DNA of 64,000 nt from Escherichia coli. GTDB taxonomy: Bacteria; Pseudomonadota; Gammaproteobacteria; Enterobacterales; Enterobacteriaceae. Position 1 is the first letter of the stretch, and the number at the start of each line of letters is the position of its first letter. The translations under genes and the position numbers were made by a program. Below the pieces are notes generated by a model. That model saw only the letters and a list, made by a program, of their open reading frames with translations. It ran no database searches and was not told where the DNA came from. The stretch lies in NCBI RefSeq assembly GCF_017348835.2, contig NZ_CP071375.1; one strand, written 5' to 3'. Positions 1 through 28,747 of the stretch are shown piece after piece.

Positions 1-805
1 CTTGGCGCGGGTTATGAATTTGTCGGGTAACCAGCAGGGATTGCGCCATCGCCTCACGGACCATGTAATCCGGCAAAAAACCAATCCCTTCACCTAAAAT
101 CTGGCACTGGCATTTGGTGTTGAAATCTGGCACCAGAATCGACTCCTGCCCATGCAGCAACCAGCCCACTTTTTTATTAATCGTATGTGCGGTGTCCTCC
201 ACCATAATATTAGGGTAGAGACGCAGCTGACTTTCGGCGATCGGCTCTGGCACAAAGGCTAACGGGTGATCCGGGGCGATGGCAAAGGCCCAGCGAATCG
301 CGCCAATCTCCGTGTAATCAATGCCGCCGCCGTCCAGCAGCGTGTCGGGCGCGCCAATAGCGATATTGGCCTGATTATTAATAATCGCATCCCAGACGCC
401 GTTATACACTTCGGTGGTGACGGTAATCTGGCAGGTAGGAAACTGCTTTTTCAGTACCTGCAATAAGCGCGCGGTGTGTTTAGGCGTATAAAGTAGCTGG
501 TTAATACAAATGCGAACCCGTGCTTCTATGCCCTGCGAAATAGTATCAATGCTACGTTTGATGGCGTGAAAATCATTCAGCAGGTCGGTAGCTTTGCGGA
601 AAAAATAACGCCCGGACTCCGTTAACTCAATGCTGCGGGTACTGCGAGTGAACAGCACCACATCCAGCCCCGTCTCCATACGCTTAATGGTGTAGCTAAT
701 GGCGGAAGTGGTTAAACCCAACTCTTCTGCGGCTTTACTGAAGCTGCCAAAACGCGCAGCGGTAGTAAATGCCAACAGATTCTCTTCGGTAAAAATTGAG
801 TTCAT
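1..805 (-). CDS. yahB: LysR-family transcriptional regulator, 5' part (C-terminus beyond window edge)
   Basis: Manual translation from the ATG at 803-805 (minus strand) gives MNSIFTEENLLAFTTAARFGSFSKAAEELGLTTSAISYTIKRMETGLDVVLFTR, a typical LysR HTH N-terminus; frame appears open to the window edge; synteny with yahC/yahD. Confidence 0.7.
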   Translation of the reverse strand, partial: MNSIFTEENLLAFTTAARFGSFSKAAEELGLTTSAISYTIKRMETGLDVVLFTRSTRSIELTESGRYFFRKATDLLNDFHAIKRSIDTISQGIEARVRICINQLLYTPKHTARLLQVLKKQFPTCQITVTTEVYNGVWDAIINNQANIAIGAPDTLLDGGGIDYTEIGAIRWAFAIAPDHPLAFVPEPIAESQLRLYPNIMVEDTAHTINKKVGWLLHGQESILVPDFNTKCQCQILGEGIGFLPDYMVREAMAQSLLVTRQIHNPRQ

Positions 806-896
806 TAAACCATTCCCGCCATTATCTAATATGAATTTCTCCAGGCATAACTGTAGAGGTATCAATTAAAGATGGGTAATCATTTTTGAATAACTT

Positions 897-1394
897 TTAA
901 TACCCGTCGCGTTTAGTCGTCGCTTCGCTTAATTTTTGTCCACCATATTCTGAAATTATCCCCACGCAGTTACCCGCCAGAAAACCCAGTAATGTCACCG
1001 TCCAGTTCATCCCGCTGGCAAAAAACAGCGTCATGCCGAGAAAGCCACCGGGAATAAATGACAGTAACCAGAAACGCCCTTGCCAGACCACCACCGCCGA
1101 GAAGGGTACGGTAGTAATTACGCTCGCCCAGAACGCGGACAGTCCACTTACAGAGGCCAGCCAACCAGCAGCCAGCGCGGCGAAAAACGCCCACACCATC
1201 CCGGAATAATTAACCGCCAGACTTCTGATAAACCCAGATTTACCGCCGCCTGCGGCATAAAAACTGCAAAAGGCGACGAAGCCAATGGTTCCTAATAATT
1301 CCCATCCCTGAGAGAGCCCGACATGTGAAGACACTAACTGCCAAAGCCCTGCACAAATACCGACGGTGACACCCGTTGCCGTGAGTCCGTTCAT
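897..1394 (-). CDS. yahC: small inner-membrane protein (165 aa)
   Basis: 165 aa hydrophobic ORF; length and position match yahC next to yahD. Confidence 0.75.
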   Translation of the reverse strand: MNGLTATGVTVGICAGLWQLVSSHVGLSQGWELLGTIGFVAFCSFYAAGGGKSGFIRSLAVNYSGMVWAFFAALAAGWLASVSGLSAFWASVITTVPFSAVVVWQGRFWLLSFIPGGFLGMTLFFASGMNWTVTLLGFLAGNCVGIISEYGGQKLSEATTKRDGY

Positions 1395-1651
1395 CTTGTT
1401 CCCCTCTGGTTAGACATGGACGAAAGCTACTCTTACATGTGCAGACTATAGAGAAATAAAACCTGATTGAGTGAAAGGGTATCGGGTCAAAGAAACAAAT
1501 ATTGCACTACCGCACACTGCGAAAAGATTGTTGAACATCATTCAACAAAAAGGCGAAATACGGCGAATTAAATTTAAGCGGGTTCTTTTATCAGATTATC
1601 GTTGCTATTCTCAATTCATCGAAAACAGCCACAAAAACCAGGGGAATGTGA

Positions 1652-2257
1652 ATGAGTATAAAAAATCTACCTGCCGACTATTTATTGGCTGCACAACAGG
1701 GTGATATCGATAAAGTAAAAACCTGCCTTGCGCTGGGTGTCGATATTAATACCTGCGATCGTCAGGGAAAAACGGCAATTACGCTGGCAAGTTTATATCA
1801 GCAATATGCCTGCGTTCAGGCATTAATTGACGCCGGAGCGGATATTAATAAACAAGATCATACCTGTTTAAATCCTTTTTTAATTAGCTGTCTGAACGAT
1901 GATTTAACGCTACTACGAATTATTTTACCGGCTAAACCCGATCTTAATTGCGTAACCCGTTTTGGCGGTGTCGGCCTGACGCCTGCCTGTGAAAAAGGCC
2001 ATTTAAGTATTGTAAAAGAGCTTTTGGCGCATACGGAAATTAACGTTAATCAGACCAACCATGTAGGCTGGACGCCGCTGCTGGAGGCGATTGTGCTTAA
2101 TGATGGCGGGATTAAACAGCAGGCGATTGTCCAGTTATTGCTGGAACACGGGGCCAGCCCGCACATGACGGATAAATATGGCAAAACGCCGCTGGAACTG
2201 GCGCGGGAACGGGGCTTTGAAGAGATTGCGCAGTTACTGATTGCCGCAGGTGCATAA
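1652..2257 (+). CDS. yahD: ankyrin-repeat protein (201 aa)
   Basis: Repeated GxTPL/A..G ankyrin-like motifs (GKTAITLA, GWTPLLEA, GKTPLELA); length 201 aa matches yahD. Confidence 0.85.
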   Translation: MSIKNLPADYLLAAQQGDIDKVKTCLALGVDINTCDRQGKTAITLASLYQQYACVQALIDAGADINKQDHTCLNPFLISCLNDDLTLLRIILPAKPDLNCVTRFGGVGLTPACEKGHLSIVKELLAHTEINVNQTNHVGWTPLLEAIVLNDGGIKQQAIVQLLLEHGASPHMTDKYGKTPLELARERGFEEIAQLLIAAGA

Positions 2258-2296
2258 ACCGGGAGGCTTGCTATCAACACACCAGAAAAACGGTGT

Positions 2297-3160
2297 GTGT
2301 GGGCGCTAACTGCGGATGCGGATTTTCTGGCGCAGCGGGGGCAAGGACAGGTTGAACAGGTCTTTGCCAGAGCGGTAAATATCGCACTCCCGGCTCGCCA
2401 GCAGTTGCTGACGCTGCTTTGTGAAGAGTACGACAATGCGCCAAACAGTTGTCGGTTGGCACTCACTCACTTTGATGGTCTGTTCCGGCATGGTGATAAG
2501 GTTCAGTTTGACGATCAAGGCATTACGGTTGGTCAACATCTTCATATAGAGATGAGTCGTTGTCGGCGTTGGCTGTCCCCAACCTTGCAAATGACCGCTG
2601 TGAATTTTCACCTTATCGCCTGGCAACAGTGGCACGACATTATTCATCAGCACCTGGGGGAAAATGAAACCCTGTTTAATTATCGCGGCGATAATCCGTT
2701 TTATCAGGCGTTAAATAAAGAATTACATATTAAACGACGGGCAGTTATTCAGACAGTAAACGATAAGCAAAATATCGCCTCAGCGGTCGCCAGTATGATG
2801 GGGTTAGGGATTGGCCTTACGCCATCAGCCGACGATTATTTAACAGGTCTGGCGCTTATTTTATTTATTCCCGGGCATCCGGCGGAAAAATACAAAGAGG
2901 AATTTTATCTCGGTCTGCAACGCGGCAGAAATAATACCACATTATTAAGTGCCATAACGCTGGAAGCCGCATTACAACAACGCTGCCGGGAAAATATTCA
3001 TCGTTTTATTCACAACATTATTTATGACATTCCTGGGAACGCAACTCAGGCAATAGAAAAAATTAAACATATTGGCTCCAGTTCCGGCTGCGACATGCTG
3101 TATGGCATGGCCGATGGTTGTGCGCTGAGCCAAACCTACGGAGGGAATTATGTCAGTTAA
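2297..3160 (+). CDS. yahE: DUF2877-family protein (YlbF-like), 287 aa
   Basis: 287 aa ORF directly upstream of and overlapping the FdrA-like gene; synteny. Confidence 0.75.
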   Translation: MWALTADADFLAQRGQGQVEQVFARAVNIALPARQQLLTLLCEEYDNAPNSCRLALTHFDGLFRHGDKVQFDDQGITVGQHLHIEMSRCRRWLSPTLQMTAVNFHLIAWQQWHDIIHQHLGENETLFNYRGDNPFYQALNKELHIKRRAVIQTVNDKQNIASAVASMMGLGIGLTPSADDYLTGLALILFIPGHPAEKYKEEFYLGLQRGRNNTTLLSAITLEAALQQRCRENIHRFIHNIIYDIPGNATQAIEKIKHIGSSSGCDMLYGMADGCALSQTYGGNYVS

Positions 3161-4697
3161 AATAGTCATTAAACCGAATACCTATTTTGATTCTGTCTCG
3201 CTGATGTCTATCTCCACGCGTGCAAATAAACTCGACGGCGTCGAGCAGGCATTTGTGGCGATGGCGACCGAAATGAACAAAGGTGTGCTGAAAAATTTAG
3301 GACTGCTGACGCCGGAGCTGGAACAGGCGAAAAACGGCGACCTGATGATTGTCATCAATGGTAAATCGGGTGCGGACAACGAGCAGTTGCTGGTGGAGAT
3401 TGAAGAACTGTTCAACACCAAAGCGCAAAGCGGCTCGCACGAGGCGCGTTACGCCACTATTGCCAGCGCCAAAAAGCATATCCCGGAAAGTAACCTGGCA
3501 GTGATTTCGGTCAACGGTCTGTTTGCCGCTCGCGAAGCGCGTCAGGCGCTGCAAAACGATCTTAACGTGATGCTGTTTTCCGATAACGTCTCGGTTGAAG
3601 ATGAACTGGCGCTCAAACAGTTGGCCCATGAAAAAGGGCTGCTGATGATGGGGCCGGACTGCGGCACGGCGATTATCAACGGCGCGGCGCTCTGCTTTGG
3701 TAACGCCGTGCGTCGCGGTAACATCGGTATTGTTGGCGCATCCGGCACCGGCAGCCAGGAGCTGAGCGTCCGCATTCATGAATTTGGCGGCGGCGTTTCG
3801 CAACTGATTGGCACCGGCGGGCGCGACCTGAGCGAGAAAATCGGCGGCCTGATGATGCTCGATGCCATCGGCATGCTGGAAAACGATCCGCAAACTGAAA
3901 TCATTGCGCTGATTTCAAAACCTCCCGCGCCTGCGGTGGCCCGTAAAGTGCTGGAACGCGCCCGCGCCTGCCGCAAGCCGGTGGTGGTCTGCTTCCTCGG
4001 TCGTGGCGAAACGCCGGTTGACGAGCAGGGGCTACAGTTTGCTCGCGGCAGCAAAGAAGCGGCGCTAAAAGCGGTGATGCTCTCCGGCGTGAAACAGGAA
4101 AATCTCGACCTGCATACGCTTAACCAGCCGTTGATTGCGGATGTGCGTGCGCGTCTGCAACCGCAGCAGAAATACATTCGTGGCCTGTTCTGCGGCGGCA
4201 CGTTGTGCGACGAAACCATGTTCGCGGTGATGGAAAAACATGGCGATGTCTACAGCAACATTCAGCCCGATCCGGAATTCCGCCTGAAAGATATCAACCG
4301 CAGCATCAAACACACCTTCCTCGACTTTGGCGATGACGACTTCACCAATGGCAAGCCGCATCCAATGATTGACCCCACCAACCGCATCAGTCGCTTGATC
4401 GAAGAGGCGCGCGATCCAGAAGTGGCGGTGATCGTGATGGATTTTGTGCTCGGATTTGGATCGCATGAAGATCCGGTCGGCTCCACCATCGAGGCGATCA
4501 AAGAAGCGAAAGCGATCGCCGCTGCCGAAGGACGCGAGTTGATCATTCTCGCCTATGTGCTGGGTACCGATCTTGATACGCCATCGTTAGAACAACAAAG
4601 CCAGATGCTGCTTGATGCCGGAGTGATTCTGGCGAGCAGCAGCACCAATACCGGATTGCTGGCGCGTGAATTTATCTGCAAAGGGGAGGAAGCCTGA
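3150..4697 (+). CDS. yahF: FdrA-like CoA-binding protein (succinyl-CoA synthetase alpha-like fold), 515 aa
   Basis: 515 aa; glycine-rich CoA-binding-like stretches (GIVGASGTGSQE); overlaps yahE end and abuts yahG start. Confidence 0.8.
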   Translation: MSVKIVIKPNTYFDSVSLMSISTRANKLDGVEQAFVAMATEMNKGVLKNLGLLTPELEQAKNGDLMIVINGKSGADNEQLLVEIEELFNTKAQSGSHEARYATIASAKKHIPESNLAVISVNGLFAAREARQALQNDLNVMLFSDNVSVEDELALKQLAHEKGLLMMGPDCGTAIINGAALCFGNAVRRGNIGIVGASGTGSQELSVRIHEFGGGVSQLIGTGGRDLSEKIGGLMMLDAIGMLENDPQTEIIALISKPPAPAVARKVLERARACRKPVVVCFLGRGETPVDEQGLQFARGSKEAALKAVMLSGVKQENLDLHTLNQPLIADVRARLQPQQKYIRGLFCGGTLCDETMFAVMEKHGDVYSNIQPDPEFRLKDINRSIKHTFLDFGDDDFTNGKPHPMIDPTNRISRLIEEARDPEVAVIVMDFVLGFGSHEDPVGSTIEAIKEAKAIAAAEGRELIILAYVLGTDLDTPSLEQQSQMLLDAGVILASSSTNTGLLAREFICKGEEA

Positions 4698-6115
4698 TGA
4701 GCCAGTCACTGTTTAGCCAACCATTGAACGTTATTAACGTCGGCATCGCCATGTTTAGCGATGACCTGAAAAAGCAGCATGTAGAAGTGACTCAACTCGA
4801 CTGGACGCCGCCGGGGCAGGGCAATATGCAGGTGGTGCAGGCGCTGGATAACATTGCCGATTCGCCGCTGGCAGACAAAATCGCCGCCGCTAACCAGCAG
4901 GCGCTGGAGCGCATTATCCAGTCGCATCCGGTGCTGATTGGTTTTGATCAGGCGATTAACGTGGTGCCTGGCATGACGCCGAAAACCATTCTTCACGCCG
5001 GGCCGCCGGTTACCTGGGAAAAAATGTGCGGCGCGATGAAAGGCGCGGTCACCGGGGCGCTGGTGTTCGAAGGGCTGGCGAAAGATCTCGACGAGGCGGC
5101 TGAACTGGCGGCCTCCGGGGAGATCACCTTCTCGCCGTGCCACGAACACGACTGTGTGGGATCGATGGCGGGTGTTACCTCGGCCTCGATGTTTATGCAC
5201 ATCGTAAAAAACAAAACCTACGGCAACATCGCTTATACCAACATGAGCGAGCAGATGGCGAAGATTTTGCGTATGGGCGCTAACGACCAGAGCGTGATTG
5301 ACCGCCTGAACTGGATGCGTGATGTGCAGGGACCAATACTGCGCGACGCGATGAAAATTATCGGCGAAATCGATCTGCGCTTAATGCTGGCGCAGGCGCT
5401 GCATATGGGCGATGAGTGCCATAACCGCAATAACGCCGGGACGACGCTGCTGATTCAGGCGCTGACGCCGGGGATTATTCAGGCGGGCTACTCCGTCGAG
5501 CAACAGCGCGAAGTGTTTGAGTTTGTCGCCAGCAGCGACTACTTCTCCGGCCCGACGTGGATGGCGATGTGTAAAGCGGCGATGGATGCGGCGCACGGCA
5601 TCGAATACAGCACCGTTGTTACCACCATGGCGCGTAACGGCGTCGAGTTCGGCCTGCGGGTCAGCGGCCTGCCGGGGCAGTGGTTTACCGGCCCAGCGCA
5701 GCAGGTCATCGGCCCGATGTTTGCTGGTTATAAGCCGGAAGATTCGGGGCTGGATATCGGCGACAGCGCCATCACAGAAACCTACGGTATTGGCGGGTTT
5801 GCCATGGCGACCGCGCCTGCAATCGTCGCGCTGGTGGGTGGCACGGTGGAAGAGGCTATCGATTTCTCCCGTCAGATGCGCGAAATCACCCTTGGCGAAA
5901 ACCCCAACGTCACCATTCCGCTGCTCGGTTTTATGGGCGTGCCGTCGGCAATCGACATCACCCGCGTGGGTAGCAGCGGCATTCTGCCGGTGATCAACAC
6001 CGCCATCGCCCATAAAGATGCGGGCGTCGGCATGATTGGCGCGGGCATTGTGCATCCGCCATTCGCCTGCTTCGAGAAAGCCATTCTTGGCTGGTGCGAA
6101 CGTTACGGCGTCTGA
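4697..6115 (+). CDS. yahG: DUF1116-family protein (YlbE-like), 472 aa
   Basis: 472 aa ORF; start shares a base with the yahF stop region (ATGA-type junction). Confidence 0.8.
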   Translation: MSQSLFSQPLNVINVGIAMFSDDLKKQHVEVTQLDWTPPGQGNMQVVQALDNIADSPLADKIAAANQQALERIIQSHPVLIGFDQAINVVPGMTPKTILHAGPPVTWEKMCGAMKGAVTGALVFEGLAKDLDEAAELAASGEITFSPCHEHDCVGSMAGVTSASMFMHIVKNKTYGNIAYTNMSEQMAKILRMGANDQSVIDRLNWMRDVQGPILRDAMKIIGEIDLRLMLAQALHMGDECHNRNNAGTTLLIQALTPGIIQAGYSVEQQREVFEFVASSDYFSGPTWMAMCKAAMDAAHGIEYSTVVTTMARNGVEFGLRVSGLPGQWFTGPAQQVIGPMFAGYKPEDSGLDIGDSAITETYGIGGFAMATAPAIVALVGGTVEEAIDFSRQMREITLGENPNVTIPLLGFMGVPSAIDITRVGSSGILPVINTAIAHKDAGVGMIGAGIVHPPFACFEKAILGWCERYGV

Positions 6116-6124
6116 CCTGCATGT

Positions 6125-6400
6125 TCATGCCGGATGCGGCGTGAACGCCTTATCCGGCCTTCGAATGGAACGAGAATCTGTAGGCCTGATAAGCGTAGCG
6201 CATCAGGCATTTGTCACCATTGCCGGATGCGGCGTGAACGCCTTATCCGGCCTACAAGTGGCGCAAGAATTTGTAGGCCTGATAAGCGTAGCGCATCAGG
6301 CATTTGTCACCATTGCCGGATGCGGCGTGAACGCCTTATCCGGCCTACGAGTGGCACGAGAATTTGTAGGCCTGATAAGCGTAGCGCATCAGGCAGTCTG
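6125..6400. repeat. BIME/REP array, about three units of GCCGGATGCGGCGTGAACGCCTTATCCGGCCTAC alternating with GTAGGCCTGATAAGCGTAGCGCATCAGGC
   Basis: Directly visible near-identical tandem palindromic units; produces spurious ORFs with repeated MRRERLIRP peptides. Confidence 0.9.
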
Positions 6401-6444
6401 GCGTTGGTCATAACCCCATCACCCTCTGTAGCGGACATAACAAC

Positions 6445-7395
6445 ATGAAAGAGCTTGTGGTCGTTGCCATTGGTGGCAACAGCATTATCAAAGATAACGC
6501 CAGCCAGTCGATTGAGCATCAGGCGGAGGCGGTGAAAGCCGTCGCCGATACGGTGCTGGAAATGCTGGCTTCCGATTACGACATTGTGCTGACCCACGGC
6601 AACGGGCCGCAGGTCGGTCTGGATTTACGCCGCGCGGAGATAGCCCACGAGCGCGAAGGGCTGCCCTTAACGCCGCTGGCGAACTGTGTGGCAGATACGC
6701 AAGGCGGCATTGGCTACCTGATCCAACAGGCGCTGAACAACCGGCTGGCGCGTCACGGCGAGAAGAAAGCCGTCACCGTGGTGACTCAGGTGGAAGTGGA
6801 TAAAAACGATCCAGGTTTTGCCCATCCCACCAAGCCCATCGGCGCATTCTTCAGTGAAAGCCAGCGTGACGAATTACAAAAGGCAAACCCTGACTGGTGT
6901 TTTGTTGAAGATGCCGGGCGGGGCTATCGCCGCGTGGTCGCCTCGCCGGAACCGAAACGTATTGTCGAAGCACCTGCCATTAAAGCGCTGATCCAACAAG
7001 GTTTTGTCGTAATTGGCGCGGGCGGCGGTGGAATTCCGGTAGTGCGTACTGACGCGGGGGATTACCAAAGCGTGGACGCGGTTATCGACAAAGATCTCTC
7101 TACCGCGCTGCTGGCCCGTGAAATTCACGCCGACATTCTGGTGATCACCACCGGGGTGGAAAAAGTGTGTATTCATTTTGGCAAACCCGAGCAGCAGGCG
7201 CTGGATCGCGTAGATATTGCCACCATGACTCGCTATATGCAGGAAGGACATTTCCCGCCCGGCAGCATGTTGCCAAAAATCATCGCCAGCCTGACGTTCC
7301 TGGAACAGGGCGGTAAAGAAGTGATTATCACCACGCCGGAATGCCTGCCAGCGGCGCTGCGCGGTGAAACGGGCACCCACATTATTAAAACGTAA
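6445..7395 (+). CDS. yahI: carbamate kinase paralogue (316 aa)
   Basis: N-terminus MKELVVVAIGGNSI and an internal GAGGGGIPVV motif typical of carbamate kinase family; length 316 aa. Confidence 0.85.
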   Translation: MKELVVVAIGGNSIIKDNASQSIEHQAEAVKAVADTVLEMLASDYDIVLTHGNGPQVGLDLRRAEIAHEREGLPLTPLANCVADTQGGIGYLIQQALNNRLARHGEKKAVTVVTQVEVDKNDPGFAHPTKPIGAFFSESQRDELQKANPDWCFVEDAGRGYRRVVASPEPKRIVEAPAIKALIQQGFVVIGAGGGGIPVVRTDAGDYQSVDAVIDKDLSTALLAREIHADILVITTGVEKVCIHFGKPEQQALDRVDIATMTRYMQEGHFPPGSMLPKIIASLTFLEQGGKEVIITTPECLPAALRGETGTHIIKT

Positions 7396-7404
7396 GGACG
7401 TAAG

Positions 7405-8787
7405 ATGAAAGAAAACAATAGCCGCCGTGAGTTTTTGAGCCAGAGCGGTAAGATGGTCACCGCCGCCGCGCTGTTTGGTACCTCTGTGCCGCTCGCCCAT
7501 GCGGCGGTCTCTGGCACCACAAACTGCGAAGCGAACAACACCATGAAAATCACTGACCCGCATTACTATCTCGACAACGTGCTGCTGGAAACTGGATTTG
7601 ACTACGAAAATGGCGTGGCGGTGCAGACCCGCACGGCGCGCCAGACCGTGGAGATTCAGGACGGCAAAATTGTCACCCTGCGCGAGAACAAGCAGCATCC
7701 GGACGCCACGCTGCCGCACTATGACGCTGGCGGTAAGCTGATGCTGCCCACCACCCGCGACATGCATATTCATCTCGACAAAACCTTTTACGGCGGGCCG
7801 TGGCGCTCGCTCAATCGTCCGGCAGGCACCACCATCCAGGACATGATTAAGCTTGAGCAGAAAATGCTGCCGGAGTTGCAACCATACACTCAGGAACGGG
7901 CGGAGAAACTGATCGATTTTTTGCAGTCGAAAGGTACTACCATTGCCCGCAGCCACTGCAATATCGAACCAGTTTCCGGCCTGAAAAATCTGCAAAATTT
8001 GCAGGCGGTGCTGGCGCGACGTCAGGCGGGCTTTGAGTGTGAAATCGTCGCCTTCCCGCAGCACGGTTTGCTGCTGTCGAAATCGGAACCCTTAATGCGT
8101 GAAGCAATGCAGGCGGGTGCGCATTACGTCGGCGGGCTGGACCCGACCAGTGTCGATGGCGCGATGGAAAAATCCCTCGATACCATGTTCCAGATTGCGC
8201 TGGACTACGACAAAGGCGTCGATATTCACCTGCACGAAACCACTCCGTCGGGCGTGGCAGCCATCAATTATATGGTTGAAACGGTAGAGAAAACGCCGCA
8301 ACTGAAAGGTAAGCTGACCATCAGCCACGCCTTTGCGCTGGCTACGCTCAACGAACAACAGGTAGATGAACTGGCGAATCGGATGGCGGCGCAGCAAATT
8401 TCTATCGCCTCGACGGTGCCGATTGGCACGCTGCATATGCCGCTCAAACAGTTGCACGACAAAGGCGTAAAAGTGATGACTGGCACTGACAGCGTTATCG
8501 ACCACTGGTCGCCTTATGGTCTGGGCGACATGCTGGAAAAAGCCAATCTCTACGCGCAGCTCTATATTCGTCCTAACGAACAGAACCTCTCCCGTTCGCT
8601 GTTTCTAGCCACTGGCGATGTATTGCCGCTGAATGAAAAAGGCGAGCGTGTATGGCCAAAAGCGCAGGATGACGCCAGCTTTGTGCTGGTGGACGCCTCC
8701 TGTTCCGCCGAGGCGGTGGCGCGTATCTCGCCGAGAACCGCAACGTTCCATAAAGGGCAACTGGTGTGGGGGAGTGTGGCAGGTTGA
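7405..8787 (+). CDS. yahJ: amidohydrolase-superfamily deaminase/hydrolase (460 aa), Tat/Sec-type signal-like N-terminus
   Basis: RREFL...AAALFG N-terminus, metal-binding HIHLD motif; length 460 aa. Confidence 0.8.
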   Translation: MKENNSRREFLSQSGKMVTAAALFGTSVPLAHAAVSGTTNCEANNTMKITDPHYYLDNVLLETGFDYENGVAVQTRTARQTVEIQDGKIVTLRENKQHPDATLPHYDAGGKLMLPTTRDMHIHLDKTFYGGPWRSLNRPAGTTIQDMIKLEQKMLPELQPYTQERAEKLIDFLQSKGTTIARSHCNIEPVSGLKNLQNLQAVLARRQAGFECEIVAFPQHGLLLSKSEPLMREAMQAGAHYVGGLDPTSVDGAMEKSLDTMFQIALDYDKGVDIHLHETTPSGVAAINYMVETVEKTPQLKGKLTISHAFALATLNEQQVDELANRMAAQQISIASTVPIGTLHMPLKQLHDKGVKVMTGTDSVIDHWSPYGLGDMLEKANLYAQLYIRPNEQNLSRSLFLATGDVLPLNEKGERVWPKAQDDASFVLVDASCSAEAVARISPRTATFHKGQLVWGSVAG

Positions 8788-9085
8788 TGCGCATTTGAAA
8801 CGCCTGCAACGGTGAATAGTAAGAGATTTAAGCCCCAGGGAGTGGGGCGGGAATGGTTTGCTAATGAATGATCCTGAACTTTATAATCTCCCGGCATAAT
8901 TTCCAGGGGATTATTTGAGAGAAATACACAAAAGTGAGTTTTAACAAAGGTATTTATCAGGCCATAAATGTGACCTGCTTCGGATAAAAAAGATTCAGTA
9001 TCGAAAAACCAATGATACTCTTGCTGATGGTTACCAACAGTAATTAAGATGTGATTTGTTTTTCCGTAATCGCAAAAATATTGCC

Positions 9086-9496
9086 ATGACCATAAAAGAA
9101 AAATTCTCACAAAAATATCCCCATGCTTCCTTTTGTACTTTTGGCGATTCAGCCGCGTTGGCCGATCACCTCGCAACGTTGATTGCGACTGGTGTTAAAA
9201 CAGCTTCCTGTGGTTCGCTGGCGGGATGTATTGAAGACAACGCATTTCCGATGATTGGTGAGTATAAGATTGTAGAAAATAGCCGTGGTGAGCCTGTATG
9301 TGTTATCAGAGTGATTGGCCTGCATTTACTGCGCTTTTCTGATGTCACCGCAGAGCTTGCCCGTAAGGAAGGTGAAGGTGACCTCAGTCTTGAATATTGG
9401 CGTAATGAACACCGTCGTTTTTTCCAGGCAGAAGGAAGCTATTCACCAGAAATGGACGTTATCTTTGAAGAATATGCCCTTATTGACGTTGTATAG
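9086..9496 (+). CDS. ASCH-domain (PUA-like) protein, about 136 aa
   Basis: ORF 9056..9496; the MTIKEKF start at 9086 is more plausible; ATLIATGVKTASCG resembles the ASCH GxKT core. Confidence 0.55.
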   Translation: MTIKEKFSQKYPHASFCTFGDSAALADHLATLIATGVKTASCGSLAGCIEDNAFPMIGEYKIVENSRGEPVCVIRVIGLHLLRFSDVTAELARKEGEGDLSLEYWRNEHRRFFQAEGSYSPEMDVIFEEYALIDVV

Positions 9497-9569
9497 ATAA
9501 CTATTTATCTACACGAAATAAGCTCACAAACATAAAATATCGCTAATTTTGTTTATTTTGCTGTTTTTT

Positions 9570-9588
9570 ACGTGATGAATGTCACACT
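9570..9588. promoter_or_regulatory. CRP-like half-site pair GTGA-N6-TCACA upstream of the ABC transporter
   Basis: Sequence acGTGAtgaatgTCACAct read directly; about 160 bp upstream of the binding-protein start codon. Confidence 0.35.
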
Positions 9589-9746
9589 TATTATTGCTGC
9601 CCGTTTTGTCCATATTTATAACCATATTTTTAATAGCTGCCTGAAATAGAGCTGTTTATTCTGCATAAAAATATTCGAAAATTCTTATTCTCTCCAGCGC
9701 GCTAATTTGGGCGAACACTTCCTGACTACCCTGCAATGAGGCTGAA

Positions 9747-10733
9747 ATGATGAATAAACGTTTTGTTATCAATATGGTGTCTTCGCTGTTATTAGGCGCT
9801 GCGCTAATTTCTGCGCCGCTCCAGGCAGCGGAAAAAGTCGTGGTGAATATTTCTAAAGTCGATGGTATGCCGTGGTTTAATCGCATGGGCGAAGGTGTGG
9901 TTGAGGCGGGTAAAGCCTTTGGTGTTAATGCCTCACAGGTGGGGCCTTCAAGTACTGATGCTCCGCAACAGGTTAAAATTATTGAGGATTTAATCGCCCG
10001 TAAGGTTAATGCAATTACTATCGTGCCAAACGATGCCAACGTGCTGGAACCGGTATTCAAAAAAGCGCGAGATGCCGGAATTGTGGTTCTGACCAACGAA
10101 TCCCCCGGTCAGCCAAGTGCTAACTGGGATATCGAAATCATTGATAACGAAAAATTTGCCGCTGAATATGTTGAGCATATGGCGAAACGCATGGGTGGCA
10201 AGGGCGGCTATGTGATTTACGTGGGTAGTTTGACCGTGCCGCAGCATAACTTATGGGCTGACTTGCTGGTGAAATACCAGAAAGAGCATTACCCGGATAT
10301 GCATGAAGTTACCCGCCGCATGCCGGTTGCCGAGAGTGTGGATGACTCACGTCGTACCACACTGGACCTGATGAAAACCTATCCTGACTTGAAAGCGGTT
10401 GTCTCCTTTGGTTCAAACGGTCCGATTGGCGCGGGACGTGCGGTGAAAGAGAAACGGGCGAAAAATAAAGTCGCAGTCTATGGCATGATGATCCCTTCAC
10501 AGGCGGCATCACTGATTAAAAGTGGTGATATCACCGAAGGGATTACTTACGATCCGGCCTCTGCAGGTTACGCACTCGCAGCCGTCGCCAGCACATTGCT
10601 GAAGGGTGAAGAGATCAAGCCTGGATTAGAAATGCAGAATCTGGGTAAGGCCGACGTAGATATGGATAAGCGAATTATCCGTTTCCATAAGGTATTACTG
10701 GTCAACAAAGACAATATCGACTCACTTTATTAA
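9747..10733 (+). CDS. periplasmic sugar-binding protein, LsrB/RbsB family (328 aa) with signal peptide
   Basis: Signal peptide MMNKRFVINMVSSLLLGAALISAPLQAAEK; C-terminal NKDNID motif shared with LsrB-type binding proteins. Confidence 0.85.
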   Translation: MMNKRFVINMVSSLLLGAALISAPLQAAEKVVVNISKVDGMPWFNRMGEGVVEAGKAFGVNASQVGPSSTDAPQQVKIIEDLIARKVNAITIVPNDANVLEPVFKKARDAGIVVLTNESPGQPSANWDIEIIDNEKFAAEYVEHMAKRMGGKGGYVIYVGSLTVPQHNLWADLLVKYQKEHYPDMHEVTRRMPVAESVDDSRRTTLDLMKTYPDLKAVVSFGSNGPIGAGRAVKEKRAKNKVAVYGMMIPSQAASLIKSGDITEGITYDPASAGYALAAVASTLLKGEEIKPGLEMQNLGKADVDMDKRIIRFHKVLLVNKDNIDSLY

Positions 10734-10781
10734 TCCATTTCTTCGGGGCGAAAGCCCCGATTCTTATTGCCAGGGGATGTT

Positions 10782-12266
10782 ATGGAAACCTTCCTTTCCC
10801 TTCGTCATATCAACAAAACGTTTCATGCCACGCGAGCGCTGCGCGATGTTTCTCTCGACTTTATGTCGGGTGAAGTGCACTGCCTTGCCGGGCAAAACGG
10901 CTGTGGTAAATCGACGTTGATTAAAATTATGTCCGGTGTTTATCGCCCGGATGAGGGAGCGGAAATTACGCTTGGTGGGAAAAACTGGTCAAAGCTGACA
11001 CCCGCCGCTTCGGTGGCGCAGGGGATTCAGGTGATTTATCAGGACCTCTCTTTATTTCCTAACCTGAGTGTCTGGGAGAATATCGCCGTGAATCACTATC
11101 ACCACGGTCTGTTTGTTAACCGCCGTCGTCTGCGTGAGGTGGCGCAGGCGGCAATGACCAGTATTAACGTCACATTGCCACTGGATACACTCGTTTCTGA
11201 GCTTTCAATTGCCCGCTGTCAGCTGGTGGCTATTTGCCGTGCACTGGCGCAGGACGCACGGTTGATCGTGATGGATGAACCAACCGCTTCGCTGACCCAT
11301 CAGGAAGTGCAAGGGTTATTACAGGTGGTGCATCAATTGCGTGAACGCGGGATCTGCGTGGTCTTCGTCAGTCATCGTCTGGAAGAAGTGATGGAAGTTT
11401 CCGAGCGTATTTCAGTGCTGAAAGATGGTGAGCTGGTCGGGACTTTTCCGGCTGCAGAGATGACCACAAAACAACTCGGTTTCCTGATGACCGGCCAGGA
11501 GTTTGAATATCAGGTGCGAGAGTTGTGGCAGGGAAAATCCAGCACCCCGGTGCTGGAGGTGCGTAATTTAAGTCGTCATGGGGAATATCTAAATATTAAC
11601 TTGCGGGTGGAAGCGGGCGAAGTGGTATCGATTGTTGGCCTGCTTGGTGCGGGGCGCACGGAATTATGTCTGAGTCTGTTTGGTATGACCCGACCGGATG
11701 CTGGCGAGATCCTCATCAACGGCCAGCCGGTTACACTGCATAGTAACCAGGACGCCATCCGCCACGGTATTGGTTATGTTTCGGAAGATCGCATGTCGCG
11801 CGGTTTGGTGATGGCGCAATCTATTGAAGACAACATCATTAGCACTGTTTTTCACAAGGTAAAAGATCGCTTCGGCTTTCTGAGTGAAACTAAAGTGCGT
11901 GACCTGGTGGACAGGCTAATCAAGGCATTGACCATCAAAGTCTCTGATCCTCATCTCCCGGTGAATACGCTTTCTGGTGGTAACGCGCAGCGAGTATCGA
12001 TCGCCAAATGGCTGGCGATTGGGCCACGACTGTTGATTCTCGATAGCCCGACAGTCGGTGTTGATATCGCCAACAAAGCAGGAATATACGGCATTATCAG
12101 CGATCTGGCGGCTCATGGCATTGCGGTATTGATGATCTGCGATGAAATTGAAGAAGCGTGGTATCAAAGCCACCGGATTTTGGTAATGCAAAAAGGTCAG
12201 ATCACCCATAGCTTCCTGCCTGACAGCAGTTCTCAGGCCAGGATTGCGGAGGTGGTAAATGGCTGA
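10782..12266 (+). CDS. sugar ABC transporter ATP-binding protein, duplicated ABC domains (about 494 aa)
   Basis: Two Walker A motifs (GQNGCGKST and GLLGAGRTE) and an ABC signature (LSGGNAQR); RbsA/LsrA-like architecture. Confidence 0.85.
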   Translation: METFLSLRHINKTFHATRALRDVSLDFMSGEVHCLAGQNGCGKSTLIKIMSGVYRPDEGAEITLGGKNWSKLTPAASVAQGIQVIYQDLSLFPNLSVWENIAVNHYHHGLFVNRRRLREVAQAAMTSINVTLPLDTLVSELSIARCQLVAICRALAQDARLIVMDEPTASLTHQEVQGLLQVVHQLRERGICVVFVSHRLEEVMEVSERISVLKDGELVGTFPAAEMTTKQLGFLMTGQEFEYQVRELWQGKSSTPVLEVRNLSRHGEYLNINLRVEAGEVVSIVGLLGAGRTELCLSLFGMTRPDAGEILINGQPVTLHSNQDAIRHGIGYVSEDRMSRGLVMAQSIEDNIISTVFHKVKDRFGFLSETKVRDLVDRLIKALTIKVSDPHLPVNTLSGGNAQRVSIAKWLAIGPRLLILDSPTVGVDIANKAGIYGIISDLAAHGIAVLMICDEIEEAWYQSHRILVMQKGQITHSFLPDSSSQARIAEVVNG

Positions 12267-13230
12267 ACTGAAAAAACGCCATGAATTCTGGCTGGCATTA
12301 CTGATTGTGGTGCTGTTTGTTGGCCTTGCCTGGCGCAGCGACGAGTTTCTGACATTCGGTAATTTGTACGATCTCGCCAATAACTATGCCATGTTGACTA
12401 TTCTCGCCTGTGGTTTGTTTGTGGTGTTGATTTCCGGTGGAATTGATATTTCGTTTCCAGCTATGACCATCATTGCGCAATACGGCATGGTGCTGTTGCT
12501 GCAAAAAATTGGTGGCAACTTCGCTGTCGCGTTTGCACTGGCGGGCTGCATCGGCATTTTACTTGGCTTAATTAACGCCTTACTGGTTAATCGCCTACGG
12601 GTGCCTTCTATCATCATCACTATCTCGACGCTGAATATTTTCTATGGCCTGCTGTTATGGTTGAGTAAAGGTGTGTGGCTGTACGACTTTCCGCCGTGGT
12701 TTGAGCAGGGGGTTATGTTGTTCAAGTACACCGATGCTGATGGCTATGACTATGGCCTTGGTCTGCCGCTGATCGCCATGATTACGGTGGTGCTGCTAAC
12801 AGCGTTTATCATGAATTTCACCAGTGTAGGGCGCAAAATTTATGCCCTTGGCGGGAACCGCGAATCAGCCAGTCGCATCGGCTTTAGCGTGCTGAAACTG
12901 CAACTTTTCGTCTATGGCTATATGGGATTGATGTCTGGCGCTGCGGGTGTAGTGCAGTCGTGGACGGTGATGACTGTCGCCCCCGATTCTCTTCTGGGTT
13001 ATGAGCTGACAGTACTGGCTGCGGTGGTGCTTGGCGGCACTAGTTTGCTCGGCGGGCACGGCACGTTAACCGGTACTTTGCTCGGCGTGGTGTTGTTGGC
13101 AGTGATGCAAAACGGGCTAAATTTATTGGGAGTCTCGTCTTACTGGCAAACATTGATCACCGGCATCATCATCGTTGCCAGCATTAGTGCCACGGCGTGG
13201 AGTCAGCATCAGAACCGGAGTCTGCTATGA
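12259..13230 (+). CDS. ABC transporter permease, RbsC-like (323 aa)
   Basis: Multi-TM hydrophobic ORF overlapping the ATPase stop by 8 bp. Confidence 0.8.
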   Translation: MAELKKRHEFWLALLIVVLFVGLAWRSDEFLTFGNLYDLANNYAMLTILACGLFVVLISGGIDISFPAMTIIAQYGMVLLLQKIGGNFAVAFALAGCIGILLGLINALLVNRLRVPSIIITISTLNIFYGLLLWLSKGVWLYDFPPWFEQGVMLFKYTDADGYDYGLGLPLIAMITVVLLTAFIMNFTSVGRKIYALGGNRESASRIGFSVLKLQLFVYGYMGLMSGAAGVVQSWTVMTVAPDSLLGYELTVLAAVVLGGTSLLGGHGTLTGTLLGVVLLAVMQNGLNLLGVSSYWQTLITGIIIVASISATAWSQHQNRSLL

Positions 13231-14183
13231 AAAAATCGTGGTGTAATAACGTTGAGTTTTACTTGATCGGCCTGCTGGTGCTAACTGTTGCCGCGTTCAG
13301 CATTACTATGCCGGAGATTTTCTGGTCGATAAGTAATTTCCAGTCCGTCGCTTCGCAAATGCCCGTGCTGGGCATTCTGGCGTTGGCTATGGCGGTGACC
13401 ATGCTTTGCGGTGGCATTAACTTGTCAATTATAGCCACTGCTAACGCCTGTTCACTGGTGATGGCGTGGGTGGCGACTCAGTATCCACCGGGTATTGCTA
13501 CGGTTGTCGCTACGTTACTGGCGGGCGCTGGCGCGGCGGTGATAATCGGTTTATGTAACGGCGTATTGATTGCTGGTATTCGAGTGTCGCCAATTCTTGC
13601 AACGCTTGGGATGATGACGTTGCTCAAAGGGATAAATATTCTGGTGACAGGTGGTAGCGCCATTGCCAATTATCCCTCATGGGTGCTGTGGTTGAATCAT
13701 GCGCAATGGTTCGGTATTCCGCTACCGATGTGGTTGTTTGCCGCAGTGGCACTGGGGCTGTGGATATTGCTGGAAAAAACGCCGCTCGGTAAAGCCATTT
13801 ACCTGATTGGGTCTAACGAACGAGCAACACTTTACTCCGGCATTAACACTCGTCGGGTGCTGATTTGGGTTTATGTCATTTCCGCCTTGCTTTGTGCGGT
13901 AGCGGCATTTTTGATGATGTCGAAACTCAACTCGGCTAAGGCCTCTTATGGCGAATCGTACTTGCTGGTGTCAATCCTCGCGGCAGTACTCGGCGGGGTT
14001 AATCCGGACGGCGGCAGCGGGCGGATAATTGGTATGGTGCTGGCGCTGTTTCTTCTGCAAATTATTGAAAGCGGCTTCAATATTCTCGGTATAAGCCCCT
14101 ACCTGACGATGGCCTTATGGGGAACGTTGCTGCTCTGTTTCATTCAGGCTCGCGGCATGTTGGGGCTGGATCGGGTGGTTTAA
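13227..14183 (+). CDS. ABC transporter permease, second subunit (about 318 aa)
   Basis: Multi-TM ORF; the MKKSW start forms an ATGA overlap with the preceding permease stop. Confidence 0.8.
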   Translation: MKKSWCNNVEFYLIGLLVLTVAAFSITMPEIFWSISNFQSVASQMPVLGILALAMAVTMLCGGINLSIIATANACSLVMAWVATQYPPGIATVVATLLAGAGAAVIIGLCNGVLIAGIRVSPILATLGMMTLLKGINILVTGGSAIANYPSWVLWLNHAQWFGIPLPMWLFAAVALGLWILLEKTPLGKAIYLIGSNERATLYSGINTRRVLIWVYVISALLCAVAAFLMMSKLNSAKASYGESYLLVSILAAVLGGVNPDGGSGRIIGMVLALFLLQIIESGFNILGISPYLTMALWGTLLLCFIQARGMLGLDRVV

Positions 14184-14269
14184 ATATTGGCTATATTCAA
14201 TGGACGCGTTTTGCCGCGATGACATATCAGGCGTCGCCAAATACACATAGCTAATCAGGAGTAAACACA

Positions 14270-26214: not shown

Positions 26215-27474
26215 GTGTCGCAAGATAACAACTTTAGCCAGGGGCCAGTCCCGCAGTCGGCGCGGAAAGGGGTATTGGCATTGACGTTCGTCATGCTGGG
26301 ATTAACCTTCTTTTCCGCCAGTATGTGGACCGGCGGCACTCTCGGAACCGGTCTTAGCTATCATGATTTCTTCCTCGCAGTTCTCATCGGTAATCTTCTC
26401 CTCGGTATTTACACTTCATTTCTCGGTTACATTGGCGCAAAAACCGGCCTGACCACTCATCTTCTTGCTCGCTTCTCGTTTGGTGTTAAAGGCTCATGGC
26501 TGCCTTCACTGCTGCTGGGCGGCACCCAGGTTGGCTGGTTTGGCGTTGGCGTGGCGATGTTTGCTATTCCGGTGGGCAAGGCAACCGGGCTGGATATTAA
26601 TTTGCTGATTGCCGTTTCCGGTTTACTGATGACCGTCACCGTCTTCTTTGGCATTTCGGCGCTGACGGTTCTTTCGGTGATTGCGGTTCCGGCTATTGCC
26701 TGCCTTGGCGGTTATTCCGTGTGGCTGGCCGTTAACGACATGGGCGGTCTGGACGCATTAAAAGCGGTCGTTCCCGCACAACCGTTAGATTTCAATGTCG
26801 CGCTGGCGCTGGTTGTGGGGTCATTTATCAGCGCGGGTACGCTCACCGCTGACTTTGTCCGCTTTGGTCGCAATGCCAAACTGGCGGTGCTGGTGGCGAT
26901 GGTGGCCTTTTTCCTCGGCAACTCGTTGATGTTTATTTTCGGTGCAGCGGGCGCTGCGGCACTGGGGATGGCGGATATCTCTGATGTGATGATTGCTCAG
27001 GGCCTGCTGTTGCCTGCGATTGTGGTGCTGGGGCTAAATATCTGGACCACCAACGATAACGCGCTCTATGCGTCGGGTTTAGGTTTCGCCAACATTACCG
27101 GGATGTCGAGCAAAACCCTTTCGGTAATCAACGGTATTATCGGTACGGTCTGTGCATTATGGCTGTATAACAATTTTGTCGGCTGGTTGACCTTCCTTTC
27201 GGCAGCTATTCCTCCAGTGGGTGGCGTGATCATTGCCGACTATCTGATGAACCGTCGCCGCTATGAGCACTTTGCGACCACGCGTATGATGAGTGTCAAT
27301 TGGGTGGCGATTCTGGCGGTCGCCTTGGGGATTGCCGCAGGCCACTGGTTACCGGGAATTGTTCCGGTCAACGCAGTATTAGGTGGCGCGCTGAGCTATC
27401 TGATCCTTAACCCGATTTTGAATCGTAAAACGACAGCAGCAATGACGCATGTGGAGGCTAACAGTGTCGAATAA
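26215..27474 (+). CDS. codB: cytosine permease (GTG start)
   Basis: 419 aa, 12-TM NCS1 family; N-terminus [19 protein letters not shown]. Confidence 0.92.
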
Positions 27475-28747
27475 CGCTTTACAAACAATTATTAACGCCC
27501 GGTTACCCGGCAAAGAGGGGCTGTGGCAGATTCATTTTCACGACGGAAAAATCAGCGCCATTGATGCGCAATCCGGCGTGATGCCCGTAACTGAAAACAG
27601 CCTTGATGCCGAACAAGGTTTAGTTATACCGCCATTTGTGGAGCCGCATATTCACCTGGACACCACGCAAACCGCCGGACAACCGAACTGGAATCAGTCT
27701 GGCACGCTGTTCGAAGGCATTGAACGCTGGGCCGAGCGCAAAGCGTTATTAACCCATGACGATGTGAAACAACGCGCATGGCAAACGCTGAAATGGCAGA
27801 TTGCCAACGGCATTCAGCATGTGCGTACCCATGTCGATGTTTCGGATGCAACGCTAACTGCGCTGAAAGCAATGCTGGAAGTGAAGCAGGAAGTCGCGCC
27901 GTGGATTGATCTGCAAATCGTCGCCTTCCCTCAGGAAGGGATTTTGTCGTATCCCAACGGTGAAGCGTTGCTGGAAGAGGCGTTACGCTTAGGGGCAGAT
28001 GTAGTGGGGGCGATTCCGCATTTTGAATTTACCCGCGAATACGGCGTGGAGTCGCTGCATAAAACCTTCGCCCTGGCGCAAAAATACGACCGTCTCATCG
28101 ACGTTCACTGTGATGAGATCGATGACGAGCAGTCGCGCTTTGTCGAAACCGTTGCTGCCCTGGCGCACCGTGAAGGCATGGGCGCGCGAGTCACCGCCAG
28201 CCACACCACGGCAATGCACTCCTATAACGGGGCGTATACCTCGCGCCTGTTCCGCTTGCTGAAAATGTCCGGTATTAACTTTGTCGCCAACCCGCTGGTC
28301 AATATTCATCTGCAAGGACGTTTCGATACGTATCCAAAACGTCGCGGCATCACGCGCGTTAAAGAGATGCTGGAGTCCGGCATTAACGTCTGCTTTGGTC
28401 ACGATGATGTCTTCGATCCGTGGTATCCGCTGGGAACGGCGAATATGCTGCAAGTGCTGCATATGGGGCTGCATGTTTGCCAGTTGATGGGCTACGGGCA
28501 GATTAACGATGGCCTGAATTTAATCACCCACCACAGTGCCAGAACGTTGAATTTGCAGGATTACGGCATTGCCGCCGGAAACAGCGCCAACCTGATTATC
28601 CTGCCGGCTGAAAATGGATTTGATGCGCTGCGCCGTCAGGTTCCGGTACGTTATTCTGTACGTGGCGGCAAGGTGATTGCCAGCACACAACCGGCACAAA
28701 CCACCGTATATCTGGAGCAGCCAGAAGCCATCGATTACAAACGGTGA
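27464..28747 (+). CDS. codA: cytosine deaminase (GTG start, 427 aa)
   Basis: ORF 27449..28747; GTG at 27464 gives [16 protein letters not shown]; overlaps the codB 3' end. Confidence 0.92.

Follow-up and report, generated by a model that had tools for sequence, protein, structure and literature searches.

The gene cluster yahDEFG-yahIJ lies within the first 9 kb of the 64,000-nucleotide stretch of Escherichia coli DNA analyzed here (the window; contig NZ_CP071375.1 of assembly GCF_017348835.2) and belongs to seven contiguous genes, yahC to yahJ, that are still counted as uncharacterized in K-12 (PMC11551758). We consider it fairly probable that this cluster encodes a second system of the AllFGH/AllK type, which would remove a carbamoyl group from a ureide by phosphorolysis with a yield of ATP, but with different substrate logistics. 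New here is the recognition of a conserved paralogous system with its own partners, a predicted periplasmic first step, and its own permease family.

An earlier note on this DNA, made from the sequence alone, had claimed that the yah set mirrors the fdrA-ylbE-ylbF-carbamate kinase set of the allantoin region, and had suggested pairwise alignment as a check. BLASTP comparison with the K-12 proteins taken from NC_000913 detected homology in all four pairs: YahF shares 39% identity with AllF (E 6e-103), YahG 45% with AllG (E 8e-120; 44-47% across Yah-type loci), YahI 38% with AllK (E 7e-57), and YahE 25% with AllH (E 3e-10), with invariant motifs in common. YahF also matched the NCBIfam FdrA model NF004760 (492 bits; cut-off 433) and PDB entry 3dmy (FdrA; E 4e-83), residues 58-463 of YahG aligned with the uncharacterized PDB entry 3clq (E 1e-195), Pfam PF06545 was found on every YahG match, and YahI matched the carbamate kinase model PRK12352 (650 bits; cut-off 266), its closest PDB matches being the carbamate kinases 1e19 (3e-83) and 1b7b (2e-73); no solved relative of YahE was found in the PDB sequence search. 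The Pfam domains of the orthologues are AllH (PF11392), HMA_AllF_N/CoA_binding/Ligase_CoA, AllG, and AA_kinase, and no yah protein matched a family of the classical aspartate/ornithine transcarbamylase (ATCase/OTCase) fold in the profile searches. These sequence comparisons bear out the resemblance to the allantoin region, so that the lack of homology named in the earlier note as a result that would weaken its model was not observed. Current RefSeq product names already imply this resemblance by placing some YahE and YahG copies in an "AllH family" and a "YlbE family", respectively. The likeness to an oxamate-forming transcarbamylase drawn in the earlier note was also right, but its description of that activity as proposed is outdated, since Kim and Kim (2024) purified AllF-AllG-AllH and measured oxamic transcarbamylase activity (PMC11326118), and AllK is a catabolic carbamate kinase (PMC9843812). 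The yah paralogues go unmentioned in the oxamic transcarbamylase paper (PMC11326118).

To place the cluster among its relatives, 86 Yah-type loci (80 genome loci and six further loci) were mapped in Firmicutes, Betaproteobacteria, and Gammaproteobacteria. Identity to YahG is 86-99% across the Enterobacterales and 87-88% in Aeromonas; it falls to 79% in Janthinobacterium and to 76% in Brevibacillus, Paenibacillus, and Psychrobacillus, and YahG-type proteins were at least 75% identical among the matches listed. One representative (76%) sufficed for the entire YahG group in a library clustered at 50% identity, whereas the next relatives, with AllG among them at 45%, reached at most 49%. The tightness of the group and this distance to its next relatives indicate a distinct and conserved function.

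The earlier note had read the tight coupling of the genes as a sign of a single complex. For YahF and YahG this association is backed by two kinds of indirect evidence. About a dozen of the best 150 representatives were proteins of ~1000 amino acids (aa), of which the one inspected is a full F-G fusion, and the ~45-residue N-terminal segment of YahG (residues 8-52) matches the C-termini of the FdrA model and AllF; the ~55-aa C-terminal tail of AllF is missing in YahF. Because of these natural fusions and of the segment moved between the two proteins, YahF and YahG probably form one enzyme. On the other hand, YahJ is probably exported, as described below, and YahE is better regarded as an accessory than as a core subunit: yahE is missing from the clusters of Enterobacter, Leclercia, and Aeromonas cavernicola (L048, L051, L081, and others), where the yahD-yahF gap is only 100-280 bp, and YahE is the fastest-evolving member, with 24-64% identity where YahG has 76-97%. 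AllH is itself loosely bound and partly dispensable, as AllF and AllG were washed off His-tagged AllH and allFG alone yielded 7% of the wild-type oxamate (PMC11326118). In Zophobihabitans entericus (L064, 7536-9989), one 817-aa open reading frame (ORF) joins YahE-like and YahF-like parts, which may be a genuine fusion or result from a sequencing error. Compared with YahE, the ankyrin protein YahD is better conserved (53% identity in Brevibacillus, 67% in Janthinobacterium); an ankyrin protein occurs in nearly every Yah-type locus and not in the All system, and yahD orthologues lie directly upstream of E-F-G in Brevibacillus, Janthinobacterium, Aeromonas, and all enteric loci reaching upstream of yahE.

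The common order in Proteobacteria is yahB on the minus strand, followed by yahD-yahE-yahF-yahG, a gene for a 517-aa membrane protein, and yahI-yahJ, while that in Firmicutes is a PucR gene on the minus strand, followed by (ankyrin)-E-F-G, an NCS1 permease, the kinase, and a 150-aa deaminase of the CDA fold. A YahB homologue lies beside the cluster in nearly all Proteobacterial loci extending upstream, its place being taken in Firmicutes by the PucR-type regulator, and the carbamate kinase gene lies within the cluster in 82 of the 86 loci, the loci without one ending just downstream of yahG. Outside the E. coli lineage a transporter is always part of the module, either the 517-aa protein or the NCS1 permease, with both types present in Psychrobacillus. 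The Firmicute NCS1 carrier is nearest to the allantoin permease (E 4e-130), under the curated cut-off. No match to the 517-aa permease was found in Pfam, NCBIfam, or PDB sequence searches; its AlphaFold model is poor (predicted local distance difference test score, pLDDT, of 56), with short strands in transmembrane segments TM3 and TM10, and matches only 7+7 transporters, namely BicA, SLC26Dg, SVCT1, UraA, and AZG2 (UraA/SLC26/SLC23/AzgA folds). A complete module flanked by insertion sequences was found on plasmid pMS1718-1 (L089, NZ_CP097712.1, 4273-12706), comprising genes for the LysR, ankyrin, DUF2877, FdrA, and DUF1116 proteins, the 517-aa permease, and carbamate kinase, without yahJ and with ~82% DNA identity to the chromosomal genes. 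Among 5,426 E. coli genomes, 142 contain the permease gene (at 106 sites on plasmids, which are IncF plasmids, and 46 on chromosomes), all copies being at least 99% identical.

Homology of all four proteins to AllF, AllG, AllH, and AllK, as well as the RefSeq family names, could also be accommodated if YahEFG were another oxamic transcarbamylase, with oxalurate as its substrate, and YahI a redundant carbamate kinase, that is, allantoin-pathway isozymes for other conditions, and the Firmicute loci, with their allantoin-permease-like carrier and, in two of them, an AllC-family amidohydrolase, point in the same direction. We regard this as unlikely. Deletion of allF or allG in K-12 gives zero oxamate despite an intact yah cluster (PMC11326118), and when the 86 loci were searched by tblastn with the All proteins, no homologue of allA, allB, allD, or allE appeared within 10 kb; the only All-related genes recovered were distant ones, of the AllC family or AllW-like, in Firmicute loci. 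Moreover, YahG shares 76-79% identity with its orthologues in other phyla, against 44-47% with AllG, and deaminase, permease, ankyrin protein, and regulator are all particular to the module. Oxalurate is also unlikely to be the physiological Yah substrate, as the allF and allG mutants make no oxamate and the yah loci are not linked to allantoin genes.

The N-terminus of YahJ has the features of a twin-arginine (Tat) signal peptide, SRREFL...AHA, with an S/T-R-R-x-F-L motif, a hydrophobic stretch, and an A-x-A site. The RRxF[LI] motif, the hydrophobic stretch, and an A-x-A-like site are kept in 75 of 75 YahJ orthologues from enteric and Aeromonas loci, which makes a periplasmic location of YahJ probable, and the protein has been listed among predicted Tat substrates of unassigned function (PMC7549933). 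YahJ matched the amidohydrolase model PRK06846 (715 bits), and its nearest solved relatives are of the AtzC type (6nbo, E 4e-44; AtzC 2qt3, E 8e-30), with CodA behind (about 1e-16). Alignment with 6nbo and 2qt3 placed the YahJ motifs MHIHLDK, AFPQHG, IHLHE, ISHAF, and GTDSVIDHW, and the metal ligands (HxH, H, H, D), the HxHE glutamate, and the AtzC-aligned Lys, Gln, and Trp are all present. In Firmicutes, the 150-aa deaminase was found in four of four loci; it is nearest to the guanine deaminase of Bacillus subtilis (1tiy, E 1.5e-31), lacks a signal peptide, and is predicted to be cytoplasmic. The presence of two non-homologous deaminases at the same position of the module speaks for deamination as part of the pathway. 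The pathway sketched in the earlier note, which included a deaminase, thus agrees with the consistent attachment of such an enzyme, but the Tat signal would put the deamination step in the periplasm, outside the cytoplasmic complex. The N-heterocycle that it suggested as substrate is plausible, as it fits the AtzC/CodA-like YahJ, the guanine-deaminase-like Firmicute enzyme, and the NCS1 permease.

Alternatively, the deaminase could act after the transcarbamylase, in which case an amino- or amido-product of YahEFG would be excreted and then deaminated by YahJ in the periplasm to give a second ammonia. Oxamate, the dead-end product of AllFGH, is excreted by E. coli in this way (PMC11326118), and a predicted periplasmic YahJ would suit the scavenging of an excreted product. 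Furthermore, the complete mobile module and those of Janthinobacterium and A. allosaccharophila are all without YahJ, which would mean that the substrate can arise without the deaminase. We nevertheless give this order of events a low probability, because the substrates of AtzC/CodA and of CDA-fold enzymes are ring amidines, which one would not readily expect as leaving groups in a carbamoyl transfer, and because the Firmicute deaminase is predicted to be cytoplasmic, although this is compatible with either order.

The gene for the 517-aa permease is absent from the loci of Escherichia, Pseudocitrobacter, Kluyvera, Citrobacter amalonaticus, Klebsiella spallanzanii, one uncultured Klebsiella metagenome-assembled genome, Raoultella, and one Enterobacter sp. 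Wherever the upstream flank was available, these permease-less loci carry yahC between yahB and yahD, whereas no locus with the permease has yahC, and this anticorrelation, perfect in the mapped loci, probably reflects a single evolutionary event. A homologue search with YahC recovered close enteric relatives only, so that DUF1097 gains no independent context from it. Many YahC entries in databases are shortened or variant (e.g., 141-aa proteins matching about half of YahC at 99%), which suggests that in E. coli strains yahC is often disrupted or exists in alternative alleles. The exact slot of the permease gene in other genera corresponds to the yahG-yahI gap of 329 nt, which is filled by three repetitive extragenic palindromic (REP) units that match Rfam naRNA4 on the minus strand (78 bits, above the gathering threshold); this REP-derived family was the sole Rfam match found in the window. 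The yahH ORF, described in the literature as "yahH (filled with REP23 sites)" (PMC11551758), is an artefact made of REP units. Varied REP-type elements occupy the yahG-yahI spacers of the permease-less lineage, in which no permease remnants were found.

The ratio of nonsynonymous to synonymous substitution rates (dN/dS) was computed between E. coli, E. albertii, C. amalonaticus, and Kluyvera, all of them permease-less. Values were 0.02-0.07 for yahF, yahG, yahI, and yahJ (0.04-0.06 for yahJ), 0.05-0.11 for yahC, 0.06-0.15 for yahD, and 0.19-0.30 for yahE, so all the genes are under purifying selection in this lineage and the cluster is not decaying. Two Pseudocitrobacter loci (L009 and L010) are mosaic with respect to E. 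coli, with dS of 0.16-0.24 in yahF, yahG, yahI, and yahJ versus 1.2-1.7 in yahC, yahD, and yahE, which points to recent recombination with a breakpoint near the yahE/yahF junction. The selection data bear on the view that the E. coli cluster is a cryptic relic, non-functional since the loss of the permease and kept by inertia, for which one could cite the absence of the permease gene, the REP elements in its slot, the lack of a known phenotype, the many truncated YahC sequences in databases, and a stop codon that arose in a DUF1116 gene during laboratory evolution at no obvious cost (PMC6306219). Against such a relic stand the integrity of the seven genes, their dN/dS of 0.02-0.3 among the permease-less taxa, the 95-99% identity of the cluster in nearly all of the 5,426 complete E. 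coli genomes, and the slightly reduced fitness in mice of an extraintestinal pathogenic E. coli (ExPEC) yahJ deletion mutant (competitive index 0.70, p 0.02; PMC7549933), and we therefore consider it quite improbable. It is hardly credible that YahF is an acyl-CoA synthetase, as its RefSeq label says, in a cluster activating an organic acid with CoA, since, for all its CoA_binding and Ligase_CoA domains and its likeness to the alpha subunit of succinyl-CoA synthetase, the homologous AllF belongs to a purified enzyme making carbamoyl phosphate and oxamate without CoA (PMC11326118), no ATP-grasp (beta-subunit) partner is encoded, the SucD phosphohistidine aligns with Ile in both YahF and AllF (MAFFT; tentatively, given a large insertion in the region), and the linkage to carbamate kinase is conserved across Yah-type loci.

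Regarding regulation, yahB and yahC are transcribed divergently from yahD, with a shared control region. A perfect palindrome containing T-N11-A lies there, ~125 nt upstream of yahD; its arms and position are kept, with a variable spacer, in 75 of 81 loci, at about -118 to -136 in most of them and up to -201, which makes it, on sequence grounds, a good candidate for the YahB operator. No plus-strand terminator was found in a scan of the cluster, and no riboswitch was found upstream of Yah-type clusters in either Firmicutes or Proteobacteria.

For yahDEFG-yahIJ as a second AllFGH/AllK-type system we infer the following scheme, from its catalytic steps and direction of flow to its class of substrate. 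YahJ would fold with its metal in the cytoplasm, be exported through the Tat system, and deaminate an amino- or imino-substituted N-heterocycle in the periplasm, with release of NH3, by chemistry of the AtzC/cytosine-deaminase type. The oxo product, or an N-acylurea arising from it, would then be taken up, in most bacteria by the 517-aa permease and in the E. coli lineage by another carrier, for which YahC is a guess. In the cytoplasm, the YahF-YahG core would cleave the terminal carbamoyl-N bond with phosphate, yielding carbamoyl phosphate and an amide, by analogy with AllF-AllG on oxalurate; YahE may serve as a loosely bound, AllH-like helper and the ankyrin protein YahD as a subfamily-specific partner. 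Finally, YahI would transfer the phosphate onto ADP to form ATP, CO2, and NH3, and YahB would control the divergent promoters via the conserved palindrome. The substrate is most likely an N-acylurea related to oxalurate, allophanate, carboxybiuret, or ureidomalonate. Several specific compounds were considered (ammelide/cyanurate, creatinine/hydantoins, iminoallantoin, guanylurea/biuret, and 5-azacytosine), and none was singled out by the data; the idea that YahFG opens the ring of a cyclic ureide phosphorolytically, leaving YahI to work on an N-substituted carbamoyl phosphate, was set aside as unsupported.

Several observations weigh against this scheme. A literature search turned up no activity, inducer, or phenotype for the yah genes apart from the fitness effect in mice (PMC7549933). 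The module has no obvious ring-opening enzyme, which is a difficulty if the deaminated product is a cyclic ureide, and the absence of the dedicated permease in E. coli leaves the uptake step there without an identified carrier. The 7+7 fold of that permease is tentative, coming as it does from the model with pLDDT 56. At the subunit level, yahE is lacking in some genera, whereas allH strongly promotes activity in the All system, and YahI scores 347 on the carbamate kinase equivalog TIGR00746, just below its cut-off of 358. In addition, a simple consensus scan found no sigma-70 promoter upstream of yahD.

The locus itself is part of the E. coli chromosome: positions 1-12000 of the window are 100% identical to strain PE164, this 12-kb region has 95-99% identity in nearly all of the 5,426 complete E. 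coli genomes, the gene order is the same in K-12, and all seven genes are intact in E. coli. The PE164 annotation gives yahD as ankyrin, yahE as DUF2877, fdrA/yahF, yahG as DUF1116, yahI as carbamate kinase family, and yahJ as amidohydrolase. Each ORF sits exactly where the earlier note had put it, the family assignments made there (ankyrin, DUF2877, FdrA, DUF1116, carbamate kinase, and amidohydrolase) hold in profile searches, and the flanking LysR gene that it mentioned, yahB, is annotated divergently upstream (Table 1). The yahE/yahF overlap reported in it was recovered and measures 11 nt, but the supposed ATGA junction between yahF and yahG reads TGATG, a 1-nt overlap. yahI and yahJ are separated by 9 nt, and good Shine-Dalgarno sequences are found at the starts of yahF, yahG, and yahJ, at their junctions with yahE, yahF, and yahI, respectively. 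Two features of the locus had gone unnoted in the earlier reading, the REP array between yahG and yahI and the Tat signal peptide of YahJ.

Table 1. Features of the yah locus, in window coordinates.
Feature	Position	Strand	Description
yahB	2..805	-	LysR-type regulator, 3' part (window begins inside the gene), divergent from yahD; annotation and tblastn
yahC	897..1394	-	165-aa DUF1097 inner-membrane protein; Pfam DUF1097, E 1.4e-26
Palindrome upstream of yahD	1528..1548		TTGTTGAA-N5-TTCAACAA, candidate YahB operator
yahD	1652..2257	+	201-aa ankyrin-repeat protein; ankyrin models matched
yahE	2297..3160	+	DUF2877/AllH-like accessory subunit
yahF	3150..4697	+	FdrA/AllF-like subunit, succinyl-CoA-synthetase-alpha-like fold
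yahG	4697..6115	+	DUF1116/AllG-like subunit
REP array ("yahH")	6128..6406		Three tandem 93-nt REP/BIME (bacterial interspersed mosaic element) units; Rfam naRNA4
yahI	6445..7395	+	Carbamate kinase paralogue
YahJ Tat signal peptide (predicted)	7405..7503	+	MKENNSRREFLSQSGKMVTAAALFGTSVPLAHA
yahJ	7405..8787	+	Amidohydrolase-superfamily aminohydrolase, AtzC/cytosine-deaminase group, predicted periplasmic

Downstream of the cluster, the yahJ-yahK interval (about 9056-14200 of the window) contains an ASCH-domain gene followed by a four-gene sugar/autoinducer-2 (AI-2)-like ATP-binding cassette (ABC) transporter (from 9747), absent in K-12, and the 12-kb query, which includes this ASCH/ABC segment, reached a coverage of at least 80% in only 1,822 of the 5,426 genomes. 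About 18 kb downstream, at 26215-28747, lie codB-codA, encoding cytosine permease and cytosine deaminase; CodA is the only paralogue of YahJ in the window (25% identity, E 4e-19).

Beyond the Yah group, the F-G family occurs in other settings. In a sister F-G cluster (L092), a gene for an AtzD/TrzD ring-opening amidohydrolase lies directly upstream of F-G; a metagenomic locus (L093) has, within a PucR-AllH-F-G-kinase-uracil phosphoribosyltransferase cluster, a BiuH-like biuret hydrolase flanked by two permease homologues (39 and 35% identity to the 517-aa protein); a third non-Yah F-G cluster (L094) contains a hydantoinase; and biuH adjoins allFGHK in nitrifiers (PMC12625717). As sister clades thus stand beside enzymes that make N-acylureas, we read the members of this family as enzymes that phosphorolyse terminal N-acylureas, a different upstream hydrolase serving each clade. 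A further F-G system of some ExPEC strains is known from the literature, on the island next to tkt1 in avian pathogenic E. coli (APEC) O1 and BEN2908. This island encodes an isochorismatase-like hydrolase, "yahE", "yahF", "yahG" (sharing 46% identity with YahG), an NCS1 permease, and a YqeA-like kinase, and it resembles the metagenomic locus L093.

One specificity has been assayed so far for AllFGH-type enzymes (PMC11326118), and literature searches on DUF1116/DUF2877, or on ankyrin proteins with carbamate kinase, returned nothing beyond AllFGH/AllK and lists of unknowns. A broader reading, which we hold to be possible but doubtful, is that Yah is a widespread, mobile, energy-conserving pathway for an unrecognized natural ureide or amino-heterocycle, with deamination outside the cytoplasm, a new 7+7 permease family, and an ankyrin enzyme subunit. 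AllFGH-type enzymes would then be "N-acylurea phosphorylases" of several specificities (oxalurate, allophanate, carboxybiuret or ureidomalonate, and the Yah substrate), and a candidate source of that substrate would be a purine oxidation product, or else a compound of triazine- or iminohydantoin-like type that is plentiful in the gut or in excreta.

Among known systems, AllFGH with AllK (PMC11326118, PMC9843812) has the same four families in an operon-like cluster, with the same predicted phosphorolysis of a terminal carbamoyl on an amide nitrogen followed by ATP formation. It differs in gene order (F-G-H-K, as opposed to E-F-G...I in yah) and in the position of the ~45-aa tail, which is on F in All and on G in Yah. 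The Yah system also adds an ankyrin protein, a predicted Tat-exported aminohydrolase, its own LysR regulator YahB, and, elsewhere than in E. coli, a dedicated permease; it is unlinked to allantoin genes, does not replace allF or allG in vivo, and is far more conserved across phyla. The arginine and agmatine deiminase pathways resemble it in their sequence of hydrolytic nitrogen removal, ureido compound, carbamoyl phosphate, and ATP by carbamate kinase, with a transporter in the operon, but the Yah transcarbamylase is not of the ATCase/OTCase fold and its deaminase is of another superfamily and predicted to be periplasmic, so this is an analogy and not membership.

With respect to the enzymes of s-triazine, cyanuric acid, and biuret degradation (AtzC/TrzC, AtzD/TrzD, BiuH, and AtzF), the AtzC-type relatives of YahJ and the location of sister F-G genes beside AtzD/TrzD-like and BiuH-like genes are points of likeness, and in those settings F-G and the kinase would take the place of allophanate hydrolase or similar terminal hydrolases. 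The yah module, however, has no homologue of AtzD, BiuH, or AtzF, and s-triazines are mostly man-made, in contrast to the old and widespread yah module. The ygeW-yqeA region of E. coli, compared by literature only, likewise couples a little-characterized transcarbamylase to a carbamate kinase paralogue, the third one of E. coli, in N-heterocycle catabolism, but YgeW has the classical transcarbamylase fold and the other genes are not shared with yah.

The biochemical solution of AllFGH in 2024 makes the yah genes directly testable, and the comparison points the experimenter to hosts of the complete module (e.g., the Citrobacter freundii group, Enterobacter, and plasmid-bearing E. coli), to the periplasm for YahJ, to N-acylureas as substrates for YahFG, and to amino-heterocycles for YahJ. 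Given the presence of the module on ExPEC and APEC plasmids and the small fitness defect of the yahJ mutant in mice, it may matter for growth in the host. Should phosphorolysis by this family extend to several N-acylureas, models of nitrogen cycling from purines, pyrimidines, biuret, and triazines would have to include ATP-yielding routes as alternatives to allophanate hydrolase and related terminal hydrolases.

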